This document shows positions 11,100-43,008 of a stretch of 56,807 nucleotides of DNA, in pieces. The notes below the pieces were generated by a model that saw only the letters and a program-made list of their open reading frames with translations, was not told the DNA's origin and did not search any database. The stretch comes from Bacteroidota bacterium (GTDB taxonomy: Bacteria > Bacteroidota > Bacteroidia > UBA7662). The DNA is taken from assembly GCA_005799025.1 (NCBI GenBank), contig SYHX01000073.1, positions 1 through 56,807 of the forward strand. Direction: 5' to 3'. A program made the translations under genes and the position numbers. Each line of letters begins with the position of its first letter. Within the stretch, counting starts at the first letter, position 1.

Positions 11100-11959
11100 A
11101 CATTATAGAAACACCCGCACAAATTCAGGACAACCTAGCCCTTGACTTTGAACTCCTCGAAAATTGGGAAGATCGTTACCAATATCTTTTGGAAATAGCC
11201 AAAGAATGCCCCCCACTTGCAGAAGCATTCAAGAATGATTCTTTGCTGATCAAAGGATGTCAATCCAAGGTATGGCTTAGGGCAACCTGCAATTCTGAAG
11301 GAGGTATGGAATTCGCCGCAGATTCAGATGCATTGTTGGTCAAAGGAATCATGACTCTTCTGCTCAAAGTCTTTCAGCATCAAAGCCCGGAAGCTATCTT
11401 GGAAACTCGCTTTGACCTTCACGAGCGTACCGGACTTCAACACCACCTGTCCCCGAATCGCGCCAACGGTTTGGGTGGAATGCTCGATCGTATTCGCCAA
11501 CTCGCGCTTTTGTATCGCCCTGTTCAAGAAAGCCTAGGAAAAATTTCACCCCAAGCGATTCCAGTAAATAATCAATTGGATTTCAACACACCTAAGAAAC
11601 TATCTGCAAAATCGAAAGAGCGCACTTCTTCACAGCCTAATAAATCCCCCACCTTTGTGGAGATCCAAGATGCAGTATTGAGCATTATCAAGACAATCTA
11701 CGACCCTGAAATCCCTGTGAACATCTACGACTTGGGGCTCATCTACAATATCGAAGTACAGCAAGGGGGTAAAGTGTTGGTCACCATGACTTTAACCTCA
11801 CCATCCTGCCCAGTGGCCGGAACCTTGCCCGGGGAGGTGGAGGACAAGATCCGCGGCGTTCACGGCGTGAACGAAGTGAAAGTAGAACTCACCTTTGATC
11901 CCCCCTGGTCCCAGGATTTGATGAGCGAAGAGGCGAAATTGGAGTTAGGGTTCTTGTAA
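11096..11959 (+). CDS. SufE sulfur acceptor fused to a SufT/DUF59 domain
   Basis: N-terminal WEDRYQYL, KGCQSKVW, DSDA, LSPNRANG (SufE); C-terminal YDPEIPVNIYDLGLIY, MTLTSPSCP, FDPPW (DUF59). Confidence 0.9.
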   Translation: MNIIETPAQIQDNLALDFELLENWEDRYQYLLEIAKECPPLAEAFKNDSLLIKGCQSKVWLRATCNSEGGMEFAADSDALLVKGIMTLLLKVFQHQSPEAILETRFDLHERTGLQHHLSPNRANGLGGMLDRIRQLALLYRPVQESLGKISPQAIPVNNQLDFNTPKKLSAKSKERTSSQPNKSPTFVEIQDAVLSIIKTIYDPEIPVNIYDLGLIYNIEVQQGGKVLVTMTLTSPSCPVAGTLPGEVEDKIRGVHGVNEVKVELTFDPPWSQDLMSEEAKLELGFL

Positions 11960-11962
11960 GAA

Positions 11963-12943
11963 TTAATACCAAAAACGATTATAGACAACTATAGTGGTTG
12001 GCTTGCTTTTTACATGAGCAACAGCCACTTTAGCAGCCGCTCTAACAATTTCTTTCTTCAAGTCAGCAGTATTCTGCTGCTCCTGCATTTGATATTGCCA
12101 CTCTCTTTGATCGAGCTCTTTGATACGCTGCTTTATATCGTTTCGAATTTGACCTAAGAGATTCTTTGCATTGGTATAACAAGAAGAAAGTGGGTCAATT
12201 TGAATGAGTAAACGAGATGCCTCTTCTGCACCATTTTCATCCTGCTTTGCGCTCCAAATTGAACTCGCTTCGTTGTAAATCTTCTTACATTCATAATCGA
12301 TTTTACTACGATAAATTACTCCAGTCATGTCATTAGCTTTTTCGTAACAAACGGAGCTGACTTGTGGAATTGAGGAAAGCAAAGTCAGCCCTTCATCGTA
12401 TTCCGCTTTAGCGGTAAAGGCGTCTACGGCTTTAAGTATGAAATCACACTGGGAGTTGTAATATTCCAAAATTTTCTTCTTGCCCTCATTTATAAATGTT
12501 TCAAATTTAGGATTATCCGTTTTGATACTTTTTAGAGCAGACATGTAGGCTTTGGTTTCGTTCTCCCCTACTCCCTTGGAAGAAATGGAATAGGATGAAA
12601 ACAACTTACCGTCAACACCATCGCCTATAAAAAAAGAAACTTCCAAAACCAAAACATGCATTGCGGGGGCCGTACTCGTTATCGATTTATCCGTAACTGT
12701 AATCCTAGGCACTATTGAAAACCTTTTATTTAACCCATTATCTGCTACACCGTACTTTGAAACAATCTGGGAAAGCCGATTTTCTAGAGCAGATTGAACA
12801 ATAGGCGTTATCGGCTCTACTTGATCGGGAACGTGAACATTTAACGATATTCTGGCAAAATCATCAGGAGATTTTTCAACATTTTGAGAAAAACTAATAG
12901 ATGATAAGGCAAGTAAACATATCAAAAAGAGTATTTTTTTCAT
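11963..12943 (-). CDS. Exported hypothetical protein (N-terminal alpha/beta domain, TPR-like helices, C-terminal coiled coil)
   Basis: 326-aa ORF; signal peptide ending ISFS-Q; KGVGENETKAY motif; helical Cys-containing middle region. Confidence 0.75.
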   Translation of the reverse strand: MKKILFLICLLALSSISFSQNVEKSPDDFARISLNVHVPDQVEPITPIVQSALENRLSQIVSKYGVADNGLNKRFSIVPRITVTDKSITSTAPAMHVLVLEVSFFIGDGVDGKLFSSYSISSKGVGENETKAYMSALKSIKTDNPKFETFINEGKKKILEYYNSQCDFILKAVDAFTAKAEYDEGLTLLSSIPQVSSVCYEKANDMTGVIYRSKIDYECKKIYNEASSIWSAKQDENGAEEASRLLIQIDPLSSCYTNAKNLLGQIRNDIKQRIKELDQREWQYQMQEQQNTADLKKEIVRAAAKVAVAHVKSKPTTIVVYNRFWY

Positions 12944-12960
12944 GCTTAAAATTGTTTTGA

Positions 12961-13926
12961 TTATTTTTCACCAATTACTAGTTGGGCTTGTCCTAGACCT
13001 TTAGTCATTAACTTGGATTCAATTTGATAAGTGTCTTCTAAGTATTTACGTAAGGTATTAGCCCAACTTCTAGCACTTAACGCCTTGCCTTTATCATCAA
13101 AAAACGGAATCCGAACATCCTTGAATAACATCATATTCTCAGTTGCATCAGCTAAATTAAAATTACCATCGACGGTATTACCACCAACCCATTTTTCAAT
13201 TAAAGTACTCAATTCATCATCCCCATAATCTTCCGTTTCAAGGTCTTTATCCCAAGAAGAAAATGTTTTAATCCTGAACTCAATCGCTCTTCCTTTGTCC
13301 AAAAGGTCATCAAAGTGTCCCTGTAAACGAGCCAAAAAATTGTCCATGTGAGCGCTAACCGCTTCTTCCAACAATACTGCTAATTCTGGGGTGTAGGATG
13401 CAGGCCCTGTACCAGTTGCAGAAGCTATTTCTTTACCTGTATAAGAGTCTAAGCCTTGAAGAGTAAATGTGACTGATCTAGCCATTCCATTCCGATTTAC
13501 TGTCCATGTTAGTTGAATTATAATATCCGCTTTGGCTGTTTTCATCAAACGATCCATAGGAGACTCACTAACTCCCGCTCCTGATTTATTTGTTAATAAT
13601 GCATCTTCTGCACTTTGAGCTTCAAGTTTTTTGAGTTCTTGCTCCAAATTGAGGGCCGGCATGGATCGACTAGCAAAAGCCTGATTAATCCCAGCAAGCA
13701 CTGATAATAAATCTGAACTATTTTGGAAGGCCCTTTTGTAGTTAGGAACGTCTCGAGATGTGCCCTGATCATCAAAAGACTCAATGAAGCCATTTTGAAT
13801 GCACCAATTGTCCGATGGCACCACCATGATTTCAGGATTCTTTCTGCGATCTTTAGGGGCGTCCTGTGCTGCCAAAAAGCTTGAAGCTACCGTAAAAAAC
13901 CAAAATGCAAGAGCTATTTTTTTCAT
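12961..13926 (-). CDS. DUF6175 family exported protein
   Basis: PEIMVVPSDNWCIQNG, ADIIIQLTW, LQGLDSYTGK, FKDVRIP, GLGQA..VIGEK recalled as DUF6175 motifs; signal peptide ending FLAA-Q. Confidence 0.75.
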   Translation of the reverse strand: MKKIALAFWFFTVASSFLAAQDAPKDRRKNPEIMVVPSDNWCIQNGFIESFDDQGTSRDVPNYKRAFQNSSDLLSVLAGINQAFASRSMPALNLEQELKKLEAQSAEDALLTNKSGAGVSESPMDRLMKTAKADIIIQLTWTVNRNGMARSVTFTLQGLDSYTGKEIASATGTGPASYTPELAVLLEEAVSAHMDNFLARLQGHFDDLLDKGRAIEFRIKTFSSWDKDLETEDYGDDELSTLIEKWVGGNTVDGNFNLADATENMMLFKDVRIPFFDDKGKALSARSWANTLRKYLEDTYQIESKLMTKGLGQAQLVIGEK

Positions 13927-13937
13927 GAGACAAATAA

Positions 13938-14435
13938 TTAGAGGCCTAGTTTCCTGATAATTCCATCTTGCTCCAATTGATTACGCAACAAATCGTAATT
14001 TACGATAACCAATATACCAACTTTGAACTCTTTTTTGTTAATTCGAACTAAATCTGGAGCCTCATCTGAGGCTTGTGTAACAAATTTCAAGTAAGATCCA
14101 CCATTAGCGAAGAAATTATTGAAATACTCTTGATTTTGTGATTCCGAGGTACTGCCACGCAACAGCGCCATTTGGCCAGGAACCCTCCCGTCTGCACTTG
14201 CAGGAATTCCTTTAAAAATAACTCCATGAACGGCATTGCGTTTTGCTAATTCTAAAGCATATGCAGTGTTTCGGCTGTACGACCAAATTTTAAAGGCCTT
14301 TGAGCCGGATTTGGAAGTAAATGTTGATTCGATGCTATAGCGCCAAACATTGGTGTAGATATCGATTTTCTTGGGTGCGCATCCATTCAACGTGGAAAGT
14401 AATGTTAGGAAACACAAAGCTAAAATCTTTTTCAT
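13938..14435 (-). CDS. Lipoprotein, LPP20-like
   Basis: Lipobox LNG-C; AKRNAVHGVIFKGI, YFNNFF..GG.YLKFV, LRNQLEQDGIIRKL. Confidence 0.7.
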   Translation of the reverse strand: MKKILALCFLTLLSTLNGCAPKKIDIYTNVWRYSIESTFTSKSGSKAFKIWSYSRNTAYALELAKRNAVHGVIFKGIPASADGRVPGQMALLRGSTSESQNQEYFNNFFANGGSYLKFVTQASDEAPDLVRINKKEFKVGILVIVNYDLLRNQLEQDGIIRKLGL

Positions 14436-14443
14436 GTTAAAAA

Positions 14444-15832
14444 TTATTTAATTAAGCGTAAGAAAGTTCCATTTTTGACACTACCCTTGAATTCGGTGAA
14501 TTCACTTTGGACAAGATCAGTTCCGTCGTCATTTTTTGGCTTTTCTCCAGCATTGTATCGGTTGTCCCAAACTTTTCCTTTAACAACTTTAACCGTTGAA
14601 ACCCTTTTGAACAAAATATTACCAGTCCCAGACTCTTCCTGCAATTCCAAAACCTCAAATTTCTCGCCTCCCTCCAAGCCTTCTTTCATGCCTATTTCGG
14701 CTGTAAGAGGCTCTTTAGATCGAATTTTAACCAACGGCTTAAACACGTCATTTTCTTTCTGCAACTTAGCAAATGCGTTGTCGATGTTACGTACCAAAAC
14801 TTTATCAATAATCTGCTCGATTGTTTTGCCTTCGGCAAACAAAAAGATACTGCTGTTGACTTGATTATTCACGAATTCCATTTTAAACACAGAATCACCG
14901 GACAGAAAACTAATTTGCGACGGAGTCAACGTGGCTTTTTCTCCCTTTAATAAAGATCCGATTTGTCCGTCATTTAAGGATAATTTTTCATTGAAATAGG
15001 CCTTGATTGAGTCATTCCACGCAATTTTGTATAACCACGTTTTGCTGGTTAGCGTATAGCCATCCTTCGTTTTTTGGTAGAGTAATTCTGCGGCTTTTCG
15101 ACTTACTTCCTTGATCATTTCCTGCTGTTTTGACATATTGATGCTCAAAATAGCGGCATCGCGAACAAGCTTTGCGAAGGGCTCATTCTCAATGAAATTC
15201 AACTTAGTGAAGGTGACAAATGTATTGGATATTAGCTGGTCAATGAGCGCAGGATTCATGATCGCATTGAGCTTATTCACTGCGATTTCTGATTGCCGGA
15301 TATCAGAATTCGTGGCATTGTAATTTGTCCTTTTCTTGAAAATATCAAACGATAGGGCCTTAGATTCCAAATTAAAGTCATGCCACCTTTGAAGTAATAA
15401 ATTCGGGAAAAAGTCAGTTTTCATTGCCTTCTTGATTCTCATGTCAACCTCCTCCCTCTCATCGGGGAGTCCAAACGCAATGGAACTGTCGGCAGCCAAA
15501 TATCGTAAACCCTTATTCTGGGCGCGGGCCTTAATCAACTTAAATTCCGAAAGTGTGTCTTTTAGGTAACCCATTTCTTTTAGTTCAAGATCCGACAAAT
15601 GAAACTTCGCTAGATTAATTGTAGGATAATCTATACCATGTTTATCATATTTATCGGGGAATGGATACCCATTCCAAGATTTAATTACAGCATCTTTCTG
15701 GGGGAATGATTCTGACTCGATTAGAATCGTTTGCAAGCTGCTGCGGAAATATAAATCATTTAACTTGCCTTGACTCATTGCATTGAAAGACCAAAAGGTG
15801 ATTCCGATGAATAATATTATTTTTTGGTTCAT
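14444..15832 (-). CDS. Exported hypothetical protein with a FlgT-C-like C-terminal beta domain
   Basis: Start re-set to MNQKII; signal peptide ending NAMS-Q; C-terminal AEIGMKEGLEGGEKFEVLE...VWDNRY. Confidence 0.7.
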   Translation of the reverse strand: MNQKIILFIGITFWSFNAMSQGKLNDLYFRSSLQTILIESESFPQKDAVIKSWNGYPFPDKYDKHGIDYPTINLAKFHLSDLELKEMGYLKDTLSEFKLIKARAQNKGLRYLAADSSIAFGLPDEREEVDMRIKKAMKTDFFPNLLLQRWHDFNLESKALSFDIFKKRTNYNATNSDIRQSEIAVNKLNAIMNPALIDQLISNTFVTFTKLNFIENEPFAKLVRDAAILSINMSKQQEMIKEVSRKAAELLYQKTKDGYTLTSKTWLYKIAWNDSIKAYFNEKLSLNDGQIGSLLKGEKATLTPSQISFLSGDSVFKMEFVNNQVNSSIFLFAEGKTIEQIIDKVLVRNIDNAFAKLQKENDVFKPLVKIRSKEPLTAEIGMKEGLEGGEKFEVLELQEESGTGNILFKRVSTVKVVKGKVWDNRYNAGEKPKNDDGTDLVQSEFTEFKGSVKNGTFLRLIK

Positions 15833-15848
15833 GGGGATGTTTTTTTTA

Positions 15849-15856
15849 CAAAAATA
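15849..15856 (-). promoter_or_regulatory. -7 promoter box of the four-gene exported-protein operon
   Basis: TATTTTTG 17 nt upstream of the ATG at 15832; the context is AT-rich so a chance match is possible. Confidence 0.5.
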
Positions 15857-15933
15857 AATTGAATTTTGAATTATGCATCTATTTGTTGTGTTTTTATTAG
15901 CTGACAATTTTCGATATATCACCACCTAAAAGG

Positions 15934-16962
15934 TCAGAAATCCCTATTGATTAGCGAAACACAATAACCATATAAAATAGAACGGTAATGATTATGAGCA
16001 AAATTTTGTTCAAAAATGAGTTTATGAATGGCTTTGAGGTAATTTGACTTGAATTCAAAAGCCAATTGAGTCACTCCAATTTGATCGTATACCATAACTA
16101 TAGACTTGACCAGCTCATGGTTAATTTCTAACCCTGTTCCATCAAGACGTTTAATTTCAGAAAATCTCTGCGAGAGAAGCTGTTTCTGGACAGAATTCGA
16201 ATGTTCCCATGCCAAAACCCTCAAAAAATTAAATTTGCAGGCTTTGATGTCTCCTGCGATCTGTTTGCCGAACCGCCCTGGATCACCATATACGTCTAGC
16301 CAATCATCCTGCACTTGAAAAGCCAACCCAGTAAGATAACCCACCTTAAACATGGCCTGGCTATCGACAGCCGAAGCACCGCCCATCATCGACCCAATCT
16401 TGAGCGAAGAGCCCAAGAGCACCGCTGTTTTGAGGCCAATCATTTCACTGTACTCACTTAGACCGACTTCTTCCCTGCCCTGGAAATCCATATCCAATTG
16501 CTGACCTTGGCAGACCTGCAAAGCAACCCGGTTGAATTCGTTTAACAGATCCGGCAGCAGTTCAGGTTTTGCCTGTACCATCCGGCTGTAGGCCTCGATG
16601 AGAAGAGCATCGCCAGAAAGTATCGCTGCATTCAAGCCATAACGAAGATGAACCGTGGACTGATTCCTTCGAAGCGGCGATTCATCCATAATATCATCAT
16701 GCAGCAAGGTGAAATTATGAAACAATTCCAAGGCCAAGGCTTGGGGCAATGCTGATTGAGCTACCCCCCCTGCCATTTCACAAGCCATCAAACAAAGAGC
16801 GGGGCGCAGTCTTTTGCCTCCCAAACCCATGAAATAATCCATAGGGGCATATAACCCTGTAGGTTGCGCCACGGACCAATCCAGCTCCTTCAACCCATAA
16901 TCCACTAGAGAACGGAAACGGTCTAAATCCAATGTGATCGCTTGTTTATTAGTGTGGGACAT
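15934..16962 (-). CDS. Polyprenyl (geranylgeranyl/farnesyl) diphosphate synthase
   Basis: GGKRLRP, LHDDIMD..LRR (FARM), GQQLD, KTAVL, FQVQDDWLD (SARM). Confidence 0.93.
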   Translation of the reverse strand: MSHTNKQAITLDLDRFRSLVDYGLKELDWSVAQPTGLYAPMDYFMGLGGKRLRPALCLMACEMAGGVAQSALPQALALELFHNFTLLHDDIMDESPLRRNQSTVHLRYGLNAAILSGDALLIEAYSRMVQAKPELLPDLLNEFNRVALQVCQGQQLDMDFQGREEVGLSEYSEMIGLKTAVLLGSSLKIGSMMGGASAVDSQAMFKVGYLTGLAFQVQDDWLDVYGDPGRFGKQIAGDIKACKFNFLRVLAWEHSNSVQKQLLSQRFSEIKRLDGTGLEINHELVKSIVMVYDQIGVTQLAFEFKSNYLKAIHKLIFEQNFAHNHYRSILYGYCVSLINRDF

Positions 16963-37865: not shown

Positions 37866-40800
37866 TCAAGGAGAAATAATCCATTTTAGGGGGCCTACAG
37901 TAGGCTGACCCGGCTCTTGAATCCTGACCCAGTAGGCTCCTGGTGGTAAATTGGGGGCGGTTATTCCACCATTTCGTAGCCCTTCACGGTGCCAAGGCCT
38001 CCCCACCACACCCAATGCCATGGGAAACCATTCTGCTTGAGCCTGACTTGACTCTTCGGGCTGTCCATTCCACTGCAAGACCTGGCCCGGCCGGATAGGA
38101 TTGGGGCCGAATAAAGGCAGGGTATTTTGTATAAATCTCCTGTTGGCTGCCTGACAATCAGGGTCTATGTAATTCTGTGGAACCCTGAGGATAAGCTGGT
38201 GAAGATTAGAATTCGGACCCCACAAGCAGGGGGATGGGGTATGCTTGTCACGGCCAAGGGCACAAATCCAATAGGCTTGAACGCGCTCCCACCGTAAATC
38301 AGGCAAAGCAGGTTTCCACGAAATCATAGTAATTTCCTTAGTCCGTGAAATTTGTTTCTGCCATACCAAGGCCTCGGATCCGTTGCGGAACATTTCCTGA
38401 CCACAAGTATTCATCCATTGCGTCCAACGACGTTGAGCATTCAAGAAAAAAGGATCTTGTATACCGCCAAAACGTTCCATCCATTCCAGCATCTCTAGGC
38501 TTAATTGGGCCCAATACTGAGTCAAAATGGAATAATTCGAAAGTCCATTGCAGGCAATCTCCATGCTTTGACAGGTGCTGTTCCATGCTCTCAACAGCGA
38601 TCTACGCCTATTCATCAAATTCAAGGGGGAGGGAATAGACCAATCGTTGGCGATTTCATGCAGGCCCTGAGCCAAGGCCTGCAAGGAGTCCGCAAAGGTG
38701 CGGCCCAAGGAAGCAAGGTTTCGTTCGCGTACATAGGCAGACCCACCTCCCGTTGCCATACGGTTTTGGCAAGCAAGCGCCGAAGAGCTTGACCCGCTGC
38801 TCAAATAAACCAAGGGGTTACCATCCCAATCCACCAAATTGGCAGGGATCAACCCTTGTCGCAGACTCATTCTATTCCCATGTAATTCCAATCCGTATAG
38901 TCCTCCCCGCTGAGGAATTAAATACTGCAAGGCCAATCCGCTCAGCATCCCATCCAGATGCCAACCTGTTCCACTAAAGGAATTTTCGCCATTTCGCAAA
39001 TAAAGTAAATCCACCTCCTCCAAATACAAAGCCGTACGGTTGTTACCAAATTGATTCAAAGCCCCATTGCCCAGCCATACCTGGGTATTCCCGGCATACC
39101 ATCCCGTCTCGTTACGAGAAAAACCGCTGCACATGACCTCTACCCTCAATTGTCCAAAGCTGAACATACCGGTGCGGTTGGAATCCAATCTGCATTCCTG
39201 CAACCGTAACAATGCACCTGCCTGACCCATCACATCCACCCCACTCACATGACCCACCCACTCTGATTGCAGCGCGCGGCTCAAACCAATGATGTCATAT
39301 CCTCGCCAACCAATACGGTTGTTTCGAAATCGGCAACGAAGCAATTCAATTCCCGCCGAATGAGTTTCCAAACCAATATCGTTACCTACGAATTCAAGAT
39401 CCCGAATTTGAGGCCTGGACATCACCCCAAAAAGGTGGAGCCTAAGGCCGGTTTGCATATTCGTGATTTGAACCTCCGAAAGATTCCTGAGGGCTGTGCC
39501 ATGAACCACCCATGCAGTCCCCGGTCTACGATTGGTATTTTCGCCAACCCGACAGCGTTGCACTGAAACCGAGCCGTAACATTCCCATGTGGAACCCGAA
39601 CTGATACGCACACTGCACGATTCCAACAAAACAGCATCTTGCAGCGACCCCAAATGCCAATGGCCCTCAATCACCAAACGTAAATGCTCGGCGGATCGCC
39701 CCCTTAATTCCAGGGAGGCAGCTGCCCCAAAAGACCAACGAGAAGAAGGATGCCTTGCAATTACCCAAAGGATCCCTCCCCCCATGGGGGCTAGACGGGC
39801 TCCGGGATGCAGGATTACCTGTCCGTGGATTTCGAGAATGGAAGAATCGCCTTGCAATTCCACCACAGCGCCGGGATGAATTTCCAAGACGGTACCGGTA
39901 TCCAGGCGTAACCTGTACCCGTTCTGTATGGTCAAACGACTACCTCGACGAAGAATCAAACGAGTCCCGGACGCAAAACGAACCGTGGAAGCATCATAAC
40001 CCCAGCCACCGCCGGGCCGCCCTATTTGCATTAGGGCATCCGTCCCGAGTTCAACCCGAACGGAATCGCAGGCGCTTGCTACCGTTGCAATTTCCCTGTC
40101 TGCATTCGTAGGCAAAAAACGTGTATGCGCAACCTCGTTCACCCGCAGTGGCCCACCTCCAAATATGCGTAATCCTGAACCCGCTCCAAGACTTAAGGAT
40201 GGAATGCGAATATCCGAGTTGAATGGAAGGTATGGTACGGAAAGAAGATGCCAACCTAAATCTAGGGTATCACCTTGTACCAAGGTAAGGGGTCTTGAAG
40301 GATTCGTGCTCGATGAACGCATCCAATCCATGGCCCTGCCTGCCCATGTTCGGTAAACCATCGCGTGCGGATCATTGGCATGATGCTCACCCCACAAAGG
40401 CCTGCTTATCCAACGTTCAAAATTGAATGGGCTCCAAGGAGATAGAATGGAAACCACAGGCACAAAGGGCGATGATATAATGTTCAGCGCTGAAACCGAA
40501 CTCACGAAAGTATGCAGGGAGACAGGTTCGGTACTTTGTACAAAACGGTCAGCGCTCACCACTCCAAAGTTGGAATAGTCTCCAGGAACATAATCCACAC
40601 CCCACCGAGGTGCCGTATTGATCACCGAGTAAACGCCCAAACGATTCCGATCAAGGTGACTTTGCCAATCTCCTTCCAACATGGTTCGAAAACGATTGTG
40701 GATCCCTGCGGCAACCAACTGCCTTGATATCAAAAACCAAGGAGTCCACGGTGGATAGGCCATGATGGCAATTTTATGAATCAACGTATTCAACGCCAAG

Positions 40801-42860
40801 GAACCAAGACCTTTGAGGTAGTTTCCGTATTGACGCTGTATATCTGCAAAATTGGTTTGAATATCGTTTCCGGCAAGGTAAACCGTATCCAAGGCCGGTA
40901 GATTTGGCGAATGAACCAAGACATGGCCTCGGTTTCGAAACAGGTACATCCTTTGAGAACCCATATCCCTGAACGAACGAAAAGGCAAGGGAAAAGTGCA
41001 AGGCGCCCATACTCCTGCATCCATCGCAAAGGCAATTTCTCCGGATCGAATACTGTCCAAGGGTGCTGAGGCATGCCTTCCTTGCCGCAAACCTGCCAAT
41101 GATCCGTTAGTAAAGGCATAATTGCGGGACTGTAAAGGCAAACCCAAAGAATCCAACAGGGCCATAAGCCTATGGTGAAATTGCTGCAAGGTTGTGTCAT
41201 AATGGTAAATGAGCATTTGAGAGGCGGCCGGAGATCGCAACACATAATGCAGTTGCTGACGATTCCGCTCCAAACGTCCCATTAAATTCCCCCGAAGGAC
41301 CCCATCTACCAAAGCATGCTGGGCACTCAACGGAAGATTAGCGCCTCGGTGTGGTGTGGATAAGGTACCAAATGAAGAGACCCCATGACAACAACCGGAT
41401 AATTCCATTTGACGCAAAGCCACCCTGGCAATCAATCCTCCCATGCTCGCTCCAACAACATGTATGGGCGCGGTCAAAGGTGTCAAACCTGCCGCTGTAC
41501 GGGTCGAGTCGCATATTTTCTTGATTTGTTCTAACAACGAAATAAGAGCTGCGGAATTCTTCTCCACCGAAGCATGATTGCTTTGAAAATCCACAAAAAC
41601 CAGATCAAAGCCTTGTCTTTCCAGAGAATCCAAAAGCATAGGTAATTCTGCCAATTGACGGTAACGTTCAGGGAAAGCACCCGAACTCACTGAGGACCAA
41701 TGGATATCCCCGTAACCTTGATGATTACCGGGCACATCCTCGTTGGAACCGTTCACCCAAACGCCGCCCTCGAATCCTTCCACCACCACGACGGGCTGCC
41801 GTAATCCATACGGGGTATACCGTGACCGCTTGAGGAAAGCTACGGCTTTGCCCATATTCGATGCGGATAGGGACCTGCATGCCGTTGGTCCGCTGTTCAA
41901 AATTCGGTCTGGAGCACCCCATCGCATTTCGGCCCATTGCAAAGGAATATTGGTTGATTGGTCTCCAAGGATCAGGCCATTGGCTTGAACCCAACGAACC
42001 TTTACGGTCTTGTGCCCAAAATGCGTGTACTGCCATTGCAATACTTGACCTGGCCAAACCCTGCGCCAGCCCATACCATCCCCCATGTCCACCTGAGGGT
42101 AGGAGCCGGAATCGTTACTTACCCAGAAGGCGGGCGGAACCATAAGACGAAGCACTTGGTTGGCCCTGGTGCCGTACAAAATCGCTCGATCCAAAACAGC
42201 TTGCACAAAATGCCTTCGGATAGACCATCCGCCCAAAACTTCCGCTGTATCAGGGGTAAAGAGTGTATCCATTACCACATAAGTCGGCACTGCTCCGTTA
42301 GGAAACCAAAGGGTGTCACGAAGACGACGCGGTGCAAGGGCCAACATCAGTCGATCCGCCAAAGAATCGTAAGTCAGCAGGCCCTTATCCAATGCTGAAT
42401 CTGCAATTTCACGATGCCTTAGATTCATCAATCGCAACTGCAAGTCCATGATGGGCACTCTTTGAATAACCGGCATCTGGATCTGACCCGCATATCGAAC
42501 ACTATCCGCATAATCATTCATCCCCTCCGGCCTCAGCCTCATAAAATTCGAGGTCGAATAGGCTCCGTAATAAAAGAGCCTGTAATACTCCTCCCAATCC
42601 GTCAAATCCGCAGGTTCCTGACGGTAAGGCGTATAGCGGTCTGGATTCAAGCCGCTGGGATTTCGTAAAAGAGATAGAGGACTTCGGTCCACCAAGATTA
42701 ATTCCGGAACATAAGGTTGCAAAGGGGCATAGCGGTTGATATGCCTCCATTCATTAGGAGTCTGGGCAAACAAACCCTGAGTCCCTAGCTCCAACAGTCT
42801 CAGCAAAAGGAAAACAGAAATTGACCCGAACCATGCGGGAATTTTAAAAATAATTTTCAT
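37866..42860 (-). CDS. Large secreted protein: alpha/beta-hydrolase (PGAP1-like lipase/esterase), beta-helix repeats and a T9SS-like CTD
   Basis: Start MKIIFK, signal ending LFA-Q; VVVVEGFE, VVGASMGGL (GxSxG), STPHRGAN; parallel beta-helix-like repeats; GPNP...PGAYWVRI tail. Confidence 0.75.
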   Translation of the reverse strand: MKIIFKIPAWFGSISVFLLLRLLELGTQGLFAQTPNEWRHINRYAPLQPYVPELILVDRSPLSLLRNPSGLNPDRYTPYRQEPADLTDWEEYYRLFYYGAYSTSNFMRLRPEGMNDYADSVRYAGQIQMPVIQRVPIMDLQLRLMNLRHREIADSALDKGLLTYDSLADRLMLALAPRRLRDTLWFPNGAVPTYVVMDTLFTPDTAEVLGGWSIRRHFVQAVLDRAILYGTRANQVLRLMVPPAFWVSNDSGSYPQVDMGDGMGWRRVWPGQVLQWQYTHFGHKTVKVRWVQANGLILGDQSTNIPLQWAEMRWGAPDRILNSGPTACRSLSASNMGKAVAFLKRSRYTPYGLRQPVVVVEGFEGGVWVNGSNEDVPGNHQGYGDIHWSSVSSGAFPERYRQLAELPMLLDSLERQGFDLVFVDFQSNHASVEKNSAALISLLEQIKKICDSTRTAAGLTPLTAPIHVVGASMGGLIARVALRQMELSGCCHGVSSFGTLSTPHRGANLPLSAQHALVDGVLRGNLMGRLERNRQQLHYVLRSPAASQMLIYHYDTTLQQFHHRLMALLDSLGLPLQSRNYAFTNGSLAGLRQGRHASAPLDSIRSGEIAFAMDAGVWAPCTFPLPFRSFRDMGSQRMYLFRNRGHVLVHSPNLPALDTVYLAGNDIQTNFADIQRQYGNYLKGLGSLALNTLIHKIAIMAYPPWTPWFLISRQLVAAGIHNRFRTMLEGDWQSHLDRNRLGVYSVINTAPRWGVDYVPGDYSNFGVVSADRFVQSTEPVSLHTFVSSVSALNIISSPFVPVVSILSPWSPFNFERWISRPLWGEHHANDPHAMVYRTWAGRAMDWMRSSSTNPSRPLTLVQGDTLDLGWHLLSVPYLPFNSDIRIPSLSLGAGSGLRIFGGGPLRVNEVAHTRFLPTNADREIATVASACDSVRVELGTDALMQIGRPGGGWGYDASTVRFASGTRLILRRGSRLTIQNGYRLRLDTGTVLEIHPGAVVELQGDSSILEIHGQVILHPGARLAPMGGGILWVIARHPSSRWSFGAAASLELRGRSAEHLRLVIEGHWHLGSLQDAVLLESCSVRISSGSTWECYGSVSVQRCRVGENTNRRPGTAWVVHGTALRNLSEVQITNMQTGLRLHLFGVMSRPQIRDLEFVGNDIGLETHSAGIELLRCRFRNNRIGWRGYDIIGLSRALQSEWVGHVSGVDVMGQAGALLRLQECRLDSNRTGMFSFGQLRVEVMCSGFSRNETGWYAGNTQVWLGNGALNQFGNNRTALYLEEVDLLYLRNGENSFSGTGWHLDGMLSGLALQYLIPQRGGLYGLELHGNRMSLRQGLIPANLVDWDGNPLVYLSSGSSSSALACQNRMATGGGSAYVRERNLASLGRTFADSLQALAQGLHEIANDWSIPSPLNLMNRRRSLLRAWNSTCQSMEIACNGLSNYSILTQYWAQLSLEMLEWMERFGGIQDPFFLNAQRRWTQWMNTCGQEMFRNGSEALVWQKQISRTKEITMISWKPALPDLRWERVQAYWICALGRDKHTPSPCLWGPNSNLHQLILRVPQNYIDPDCQAANRRFIQNTLPLFGPNPIRPGQVLQWNGQPEESSQAQAEWFPMALGVVGRPWHREGLRNGGITAPNLPPGAYWVRIQEPGQPTVGPLKWIISP

Positions 42861-43008
42861 CGTAGAAGAGTCTAAAAAGTGCTTCAAATGCGCTATAGGC
42901 AGATTCAAATGCAACCTCTATCCAGGACATCCGGCCACTCAGGAAAAAGGTTTGATTGTCGAGCCAATGTTAATGGCCTCGAGCGAGTCAAAAAAGTACA
43001 ATAGGACC

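Follow-up and report, generated by a model that had tools for sequence, protein, structure and literature searches.

CsgG, the lipoprotein of curli secretion, forms a nonameric outer-membrane channel with membrane beta-hairpins, and PelC forms a dodecameric lipoprotein ring under PelB, an exporter that combines tetratricopeptide repeats (TPR) with a barrel. A recent preprint describes FlgT as a 26-mer ring associated with the outer membrane, and the C-terminal tail of FlgP as bound in a groove of that ring (bioRxiv 10.64898/2025.12.04.692373). Here, we analyze a cassette of four genes (g1 to g4) found in a 56,807-nucleotide (nt) stretch of DNA (contig SYHX01000073.1 of assembly GCA_005799025.1; the whole stretch is hereafter called the window) from a member of the Bacteroidota, in which the DUF6175 protein g3 and the adjacent g4 are predicted to resemble these ring proteins in fold. 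The cassette is a real, undescribed, and mobile envelope module. We give roughly even chances to the reading that it is self-contained and that the four proteins, exported by Sec, act jointly as a complex at the periplasmic face of the outer membrane, the likely role being that of an envelope scaffold or funnel for a Sec-exported client rather than an enzyme pathway. The folds of the building blocks are known; the module itself, its composition, mobility, and alternative versions are undescribed in the literature searched. For envelope biology, it offers a clearly delimited and workable candidate for a new assembly associated with the outer membrane, in a phylum that does not follow the Proteobacterial models in its envelope machines.

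The four families are a conserved, co-occurring unit, and their gene order is kept across the phylum. We scored, with one hidden Markov model per family, 24 loci named from a species-genome collection and 16 loci around DUF6175 matches in a 401-genome sample of the phylum. The same genes recur together in all these 40 other loci, so that the arrangement is far beyond chance; the first-pass annotation of the window had mentioned similar cassettes across Bacteroidota, and this proved correct. Culturable carriers that came up in the searches include Sandaracinomonas limnophila FSY-15, Flavobacterium sp. SUN046, Flavivirga jejuensis, and Halosquirtibacter xylanolyticus. Immediately downstream of DUF6175 lies g4 in 36 of the 39 loci that have a downstream gene, the exceptions being L040, with one small open reading frame (ORF) in between, and L041 and L045, where the next gene encodes an LPP20-domain protein with a weak or no score to the g4 model. 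The lipoprotein gene g2 adjoins DUF6175 or is fused to it in 27 of the 35 loci whose upstream side is known, and its family is often duplicated and repeatedly fused to the DUF6175 N-terminus. DUF6175 is represented by at least 837 clusters at 50% identity, the best 150 of which include 15 g2::g3 fusions and one g3::g4 fusion, and six loci of other classes encode g2 joined to the first two-thirds of DUF6175 as a single protein of 410-434 amino acids (aa). In the phylum sample, DUF6175 is encoded by 26 of the 401 genomes and g1 by nine, all of which hold DUF6175. Genes flanking 20 of the loci have no function in common. DUF6175 thus stands at the centre of a conserved mobile module, made up of three to five exported proteins, that comes in exchangeable versions. 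A full-text literature search, supplementary tables excepted, names neither DUF6175 nor PF19672, in agreement with the earlier statement that no function is on record.

All four proteins bear export signals. The ORFs follow one another in the same direction on the minus strand (11963-15832), with intergenic gaps of 8, 11, and 17 nt, and the earlier description of four closely spaced, co-oriented genes with three signals cleaved before Gln and one lipoprotein signal is borne out by the coordinates and by the sequences of relatives. Signal peptides end in a small residue followed by Gln in g1 (NAMS/QGK), g3 (FLAA/QDA), and g4 (ISFS/QNV); this Gln is invariant in 69 g4 sequences (Q20) and near-invariant in 22 g3 and in 48 g1 sequences (Q21). 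Substrates of the Bacteroidota signal peptidase I follow a pyroglutamate "Q-rule", which the conserved Gln fits. A lipobox-like motif is present in eight of 15 g2 relatives and in none of 22 g3 relatives. As previously noted, there is no C-terminal sorting domain of the type IX secretion system: Por_Secre_tail has no Pfam match at E ≤ 1 in any of the four proteins. Furthermore, g1, g2, and g4 have no above-threshold match in Pfam, NCBIfam, or PADLOC. Translation of g1 probably begins at the ATG at 15832, since this codon yields a signal peptide and lines up with the initial Met in 48 relatives. The upper boundary first assigned to the operon, 15856, is not a start codon and corresponds instead to the first base of the motif TATTTTTG (15856-15849, minus strand), which ends 16 nt before the g1 ATG and which we take to match the Bacteroidota -7 promoter motif, TAnnTTTG. 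A scan for the sigma-70 consensus gave nine sites versus 11.5 expected from shuffled sequence, and a terminator scan was at or below the shuffled expectation.

Comparison with congeneric genomes shows the cassette to be an insertion acquired horizontally, a property that the first-pass annotation had missed. The GC content is 0.37-0.40 over the cluster versus 0.47-0.52 in the flanks on both sides, and the cassette sits between convergent sufE-like and polyprenyl-synthase genes. In four congeneric genomes (G010, G004, G003, and G011), the same two genes are convergent neighbours and the cassette is absent; in the two that were aligned in detail (G010 and G004), some 333-340 base pairs (bp), comprising the 3' end of the synthase gene and a short spacer, replace the corresponding part of the window (Table 1). 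A fifth congener, G002, carries g4 with 78% nucleotide identity up to the end of a contig. DUF6175 was found in none of the 40 relatives searched, G002 included, and since G002 does have g4, its DUF6175 copy was probably left unassembled. Both junctions are spanned by contigs from a second sample of the same study (X2 records 11251-13169 and 13176-16813), and hence are not an assembly artefact or a chimera. In the window, the borders of the cassette showed neither an integrase nor a repeat. A phage-type integrase adjoins the cluster in two other loci (L012:7752-8534 and L043:4436-5662), which hints that the module is able to ride on integrative elements.

This pattern bears on an alternative in which the cassette serves surface exclusion or defence/competition, as an island whose exported proteins alter or shield the envelope against phages, predators, or competitors in the manner of the TraT lipoprotein. 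Such a role would fit the sparse and patchy distribution of DUF6175 (26/401 genomes), the insular nature of the cassette here, the mixing of bacterial orders in the g3 tree, the adjoining integrases, and the SIR2_2/AbiH-like genes inside two type-B loci, and TraT is indeed among the fold matches (Z 6.3-6.6). However, CsgG and PelC stand far above TraT in the ranking, PADLOC returned no match for any of the four proteins, and at most loci the neighbours are housekeeping genes without further defence genes, SIR2 being present in only two of 40. We consider this explanation distinctly unlikely.

Support for an envelope complex comes mainly from predicted structures. g3 matches DUF6175 (PF19672) over the entire model (positions 1-293 of 293; 368.1 bits versus a cut-off of 23; E 3.6e-110), and its AlphaFold2 model, built from a 22-sequence alignment, consists of two alpha/beta domains (predicted local distance difference test score [pLDDT] 85.2; predicted template modelling score 0.75). 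The g4 model (69 sequences; pLDDT 90.8) comprises an N-domain (residues 25-160) with one long helix and three strands of 14-15 residues, a helical repeat (145-247), a single helix of 58 residues (256-313), and a disordered tail ending in an aromatic pair, as is mostly the case in the g4 family (WW or WY). Fold searches with these models were performed by VIA-align. Judging from the models, the N-domains of g3 and g4 share the CsgG/PelC/FlgT-M/LptE/TolB-N fold (Z up to 10.2 and 9.1, respectively), as had been suggested from the sequence alone, and 15 PDB entries are common to their top-50 match lists (Table 1). Because the Z scores are only slightly over background, the fold argument rests on the coherence of these lists: nearly all good matches are periplasmic lipoproteins or ring subunits associated with the outer membrane. 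Two subunits of the module would share their fold with the ring lipoproteins that serve as gates or braces of the outer membrane in curli and Pel export, lipopolysaccharide insertion, and the Vibrio flagellar H-ring. The TPR-like and long-helix parts attributed earlier to g4 also appear in the model, with BamD as the best match of residues 165-271 (Z 8.5) and the Pfam domain ARM_TT21 matched by 24 of 69 relatives (best E 5.1e-6); the tool itself rates helical-repeat matches with Z under ~13 as weak. The C-domain of g3 (212-321), an alpha/beta domain, had only matches of Z 6.2-6.6 to ribosomal and designed proteins in the search with the whole model, the domain not having been searched alone.

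Table 1. Genes of the cassette, the acquired stretch, and fold matches of the g3 and g4 models
Feature	Position	Strand	Description
g1	14444-15832	-	462 aa from ATG; longest ORF extends to GTG at 15925
g2	13938-14435	-	165 aa; lipobox LNG/C
g3	12961-13926	-	321 aa; DUF6175
g4	11963-12943	-	326 aa; exported
Stretch without DNA-level counterpart in congeners	11965-16216		four genes and diverged 3' end of polyprenyl synthase gene
g3 N-domain, match to CsgG 4q79_B	residues 28-210		Z 10.2; root-mean-square deviation 3.4; 126 aligned
g3, match to CsgG 6lqh_A			Z 9.9-10.0
g3 N-domain, match to PelC			Z 9.3-9.4
g3 N-domain, match to XCC0632 (DUF330)			Z 9.2
g3 N-domain, match to FlgT 3w1e (residues 94-267)			Z 8.4
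g3 N-domain, match to LptE			Z about 8
g3 N-domain, match to TolB N-domain			Z about 7
g3 N-domain, match to PqiC			Z 7.0
g3 N-domain, match to GNA1162			Z 6.8
g3 N-domain, match to LpoB			Z 6.6
g3 N-domain, match to TraT			Z 6.3
g4 N-domain, match to CC_3750			Z 9.1
g4 N-domain, match to HpaA			Z 8.6
g4 N-domain, match to FlgT 3w1e (residues 91-267)			Z 8.5
g4 N-domain, match to PelC			Z 8.0
g4 N-domain, match to CsgG			Z 8.0
g4, match to BamD 8adg_D	residues 165-271		Z 8.5
g4, match to Bacteroides BamD 9hj3_D	residues 165-271		Z 7.5
g4, match to FimV TPR3	residues 165-271		Z 7.7

Comparison with the described systems reveals likenesses and differences in each case. CsgG is the best structural match of the g3 N-domain model and is also matched by that of g4, and both the curli system and the cassette are small operons of Sec-exported proteins with accessory exported partners; yet CsgG has no sequence-profile relation to either protein and is a lipoprotein whereas g3 is not, and no gene for a curlin-like substrate is found in the cassette. 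PelC likewise appears to match g3 and g4 in fold, although neither is a lipoprotein. A TPR part (in g4) and a putative barrel (in long relatives of g1) occur within one cluster as they do in the PelC/PelB pair, but the TPR is joined to the PelC-like domain in g4 and to the barrel in PelB, and no polysaccharide synthesis genes are located in or beside the cluster. The TolB-N-like middle domain of FlgT is a predicted fold match of both g3 and g4; unlike the Vibrio H-ring (FlgT, FlgP, and FlgO) or the FlgP basal disk of Campylobacter, the cassette has no flagellar genes nearby. Domains of the LPP20/FlgP family are found in sister architectures of the cluster (seven of seven distant loci, and L036) but, by Pfam and hhalign, in no protein of the window. 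Finally, LptE is matched by both N-domains (Z 7-8) and BamD by the model of g4 165-271, but LptE and BamD are essential, universal, and single-copy, whereas the cassette is accessory (absent from 375 of 401 sampled genomes) and mobile. A literature search on CsgG-like proteins or PelC in Bacteroidota returned nothing relevant.

Several observations weigh against an oligomeric outer-membrane complex. The fold scores of Z 8-10 are barely above the background of Z 7-8 that the tool states for models without a clear match, and a common fold by itself shows no function. At the sequence level, none of the four has a Pfam match to CsgG (PF03783) at E ≤ 1, and hhalign of g3 and g4 against an alignment of seven Bacteroidota CsgG-like proteins gave probabilities of 2.6% and 5.3%, respectively; among the four families themselves, g3 and g4 included, only the signal peptides were aligned. 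The lipobox is missing from all 22 g3 relatives, unlike in CsgG, PelC, and LptE. The proposal that the lipoprotein g2 is of the LPP20/FlgP type gained no sequence-profile support: g2 has no Pfam match to LPP20 (PF02169), and hhalign to an alignment of 21 LPP20 sequences gave 2.1% for g2, and 0.3%, 0.1%, and 0.2% for g4, g3, and g1. Structural models were made for g3 and g4, and the recorded holders of the cassette are all freshwater metagenomes from one study, with no RNA holder among them. A ring or pore is plausible; the ring, the channel, and the physiological role are alike inferred. Searches of PDB sequences with profiles of the four alignments returned nothing meaningful, and prediction of a complex between g4 (20-326) and g3 (22-321) scored 0.00 in both runs, which, having been made without controls, is evidence neither way.

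Another alternative makes DUF6175 an enzyme of the periplasm with an envelope polymer as its substrate; the other three genes would then assist it or direct it to its target and would not build a structural ring. Of the four families, DUF6175 shows the strongest conservation (mean column identity of 61% versus 31-41%), its PSDNWC motif being fixed and D39, W41, E95, D125, D134, D160, R213, and E238 invariant. Such conservation, including several invariant acidic residues, would fit an enzyme as well. By contrast, no enzyme family was matched in Pfam, NCBIfam, or the PDB profile search, all good fold matches are non-catalytic lipoproteins, and the few rows related to enzymes are anticodon-binding domains of tRNA synthetases and Ham1-like NTPases (Z 6-7). 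We regard a catalytic role as improbable.

If the four proteins do form an envelope complex, it might be organized as follows. The lipid anchor of g2 would hold DUF6175 beneath the outer membrane, an association supported by the recurrent g2::g3 fusions, and DUF6175 and g4 would oligomerize, possibly as a ring, like CsgG, PelC, and FlgT. The TPR and long helix of g4 could serve as adaptor and stalk, respectively. The extreme C-termini are conserved in g3 (GEK in 20 and K in all of 22 relatives) and in g2 (GF in 10 of 15), as is the aromatic pair of g4, and might act as docking tails, comparable to the FlgP tail that, according to the preprint cited above, docks into the FlgT ring. g1 would be an exchangeable fourth subunit or a client; in other lineages it may bring its own small outer-membrane barrel, and in another clade it would be replaced by LPP20-type proteins with variable C-termini. 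Were the complex only a passive scaffold, it would be of moderate interest.

The proposed exchangeable position varies between loci. g1 is present in the cluster in 13 of 40 loci, whereas 15 loci encode an LPP20-like protein together with a conserved exported protein of 155 aa, and no locus combines the two sets. The 15 loci lacking g1 form a strongly supported clade of the g3 tree in which Bacteroidales, Flavobacteriales, and Cytophagales are mixed. Their LPP20-like proteins are conserved over the first 220-250 residues and variable at the C-terminus, where some carry Lcl_C (DUF1566) and one a borderline PT-HINT domain (26.6 bits versus a cut-off of 27.7). In distant loci, the g4-like protein has a true N-terminal LPP20 domain (seven of seven; 29-47 bits versus a cut-off of 25.9), and in L036 a separate LPP20 gene follows g4. 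LPP20-type proteins are thus regular companions of DUF6175, although no LPP20 match was obtained in the window cassette or in the whole source genome. The SHS2-like LPP20/FlgP fold is described as a three-stranded sheet crossed by one helix, with a beta-hairpin insert in those members that form rings (PMC12222027). No Lpp20, FlgP, or FlgO chain is among the listed fold matches of the g3 and g4 models, and the sole literature match to LPP20 that was examined turned out to be a reference-list artefact. We considered whether the g4 N-domain is itself an LPP20 domain and rejected this, because in the distant LPP20-bearing proteins both the alignment with the g4 profile and the region resembling the window g4 N-domain fall at the C-terminus, outside the LPP20 domain. 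LPP20-like exported proteins downstream of g4 were seen in L003, L007, L010, L011, and L024, and in L003 and L011 SIR2_2/AbiH-like genes stand between LPP20-like genes, a layout that resembles polymorphic effector cassettes.

A further alternative is a secretion or display system, in which a DUF6175/g4 ring under the outer membrane funnels or presents interchangeable Sec-exported clients, much as curli CsgG-E-F and PelC-PelB are arranged; g1 would be the client in the window, and elsewhere this part would fall to LPP20-headed proteins that vary at the C-terminus. In its favour, CsgG and PelC, the best fold matches, are lipoproteins that form rings for export, the TPR of g4 is like that of BamD and PelB too has TPR, g1 and the LPP20-type proteins exclude each other (13 versus 15 loci), and the latter share their N-terminal parts but diverge in the remainder. 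Nevertheless, the window provides no outer-membrane conduit, as g1 here is without a barrel and that of the long forms is small (~220 aa); membrane hairpins of the CsgG type and lipidation of g3 are unsupported, and no cargo has been identified. We hold such a system to be unlikely. Its most specific form would make the DUF6175 cluster a new outer-membrane machine that moves laterally among Bacteroidota, with a lipid-tethered PelC/CsgG-fold ring of DUF6175 and g4 that exports or displays g1 in the window and, in the sister clade, LPP20-headed proteins whose C-termini are lectin-like or toxin-like. This form is decidedly doubtful; if true, it would constitute a previously unrecognised secretion or display system. 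A complex beneath the outer membrane, acting as scaffold or funnel, remains our preferred reading.

The proposed exchangeable subunit, g1, comprises an N-terminal part without an assigned fold, followed by a beta-rich C-terminal domain (~362-455) that is conserved. The resemblance of this C-terminus to FlgT-C that had been put forward remains weak. On the positive side, the FlgT_C model (PF16538) is matched in two of 48 g1 relatives, the best E value being 0.0096, and the Atlas lead to FlgT-C scores 0.76, which is under the Atlas trust level; g1 itself (P0005) has no match. The g1 family has 900 matches, none with a Pfam domain, and for both g1 and g2 the Atlas contains only unnamed Bacteroidota clusters and a structure for neither. 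In other classes, the g1-like protein reaches 570-670 aa, and the long relatives have an extra C-terminal extension that resembles an outer-membrane barrel and ends in YALPSLF. Support for the barrel is weak: the 8-stranded NspA is the top PDB match at E 0.077, and Pfam OMP_b-brl has an E value of 0.66 in one of 10 sequences. A query with residues 340-462 for relatives longer than g1 retrieved one protein of 1054 aa, without a Pfam domain.

A few further observations concern the neighbourhood of the cluster. In the distant locus L038, a 156-aa "6-fold beta flower" protein (L038:10044-10511; Pfam Bflower_3, E 4.7e-43) follows the cluster. Contigs with typical Bacteroidota-type clusters are filed under Waltera (Bacillota; L013), Rhizobium (L022), and Gastranaerophilales (L025); these clusters nest within Bacteroidota clades of the g3 tree, which probably reflects binning contamination rather than inter-phylum transfer. 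In the window, the stop codons of g4 (11963-11965) and of the convergent sufE-like gene (end at 11959) are 3 nt apart, and no terminator-like hairpin was found for either gene at their junction (11957-11965). At the opposite side, the 3' end of the polyprenyl synthase gene (15934-16216) has no DNA-level match in the congeners, and the C-terminus of the synthase is strongly unlike that of G010 despite 67% overall protein identity; the acquired tract may reach into this gene. Within the same gene, short contigs of two samples match only the 40 bases at 16685-16724 and continue into dissimilar sequence on both sides, which points to a repeat or a strain variant. Farther away, a very long ORF of 1682 aa occupies positions 37866-42914 of the minus strand.

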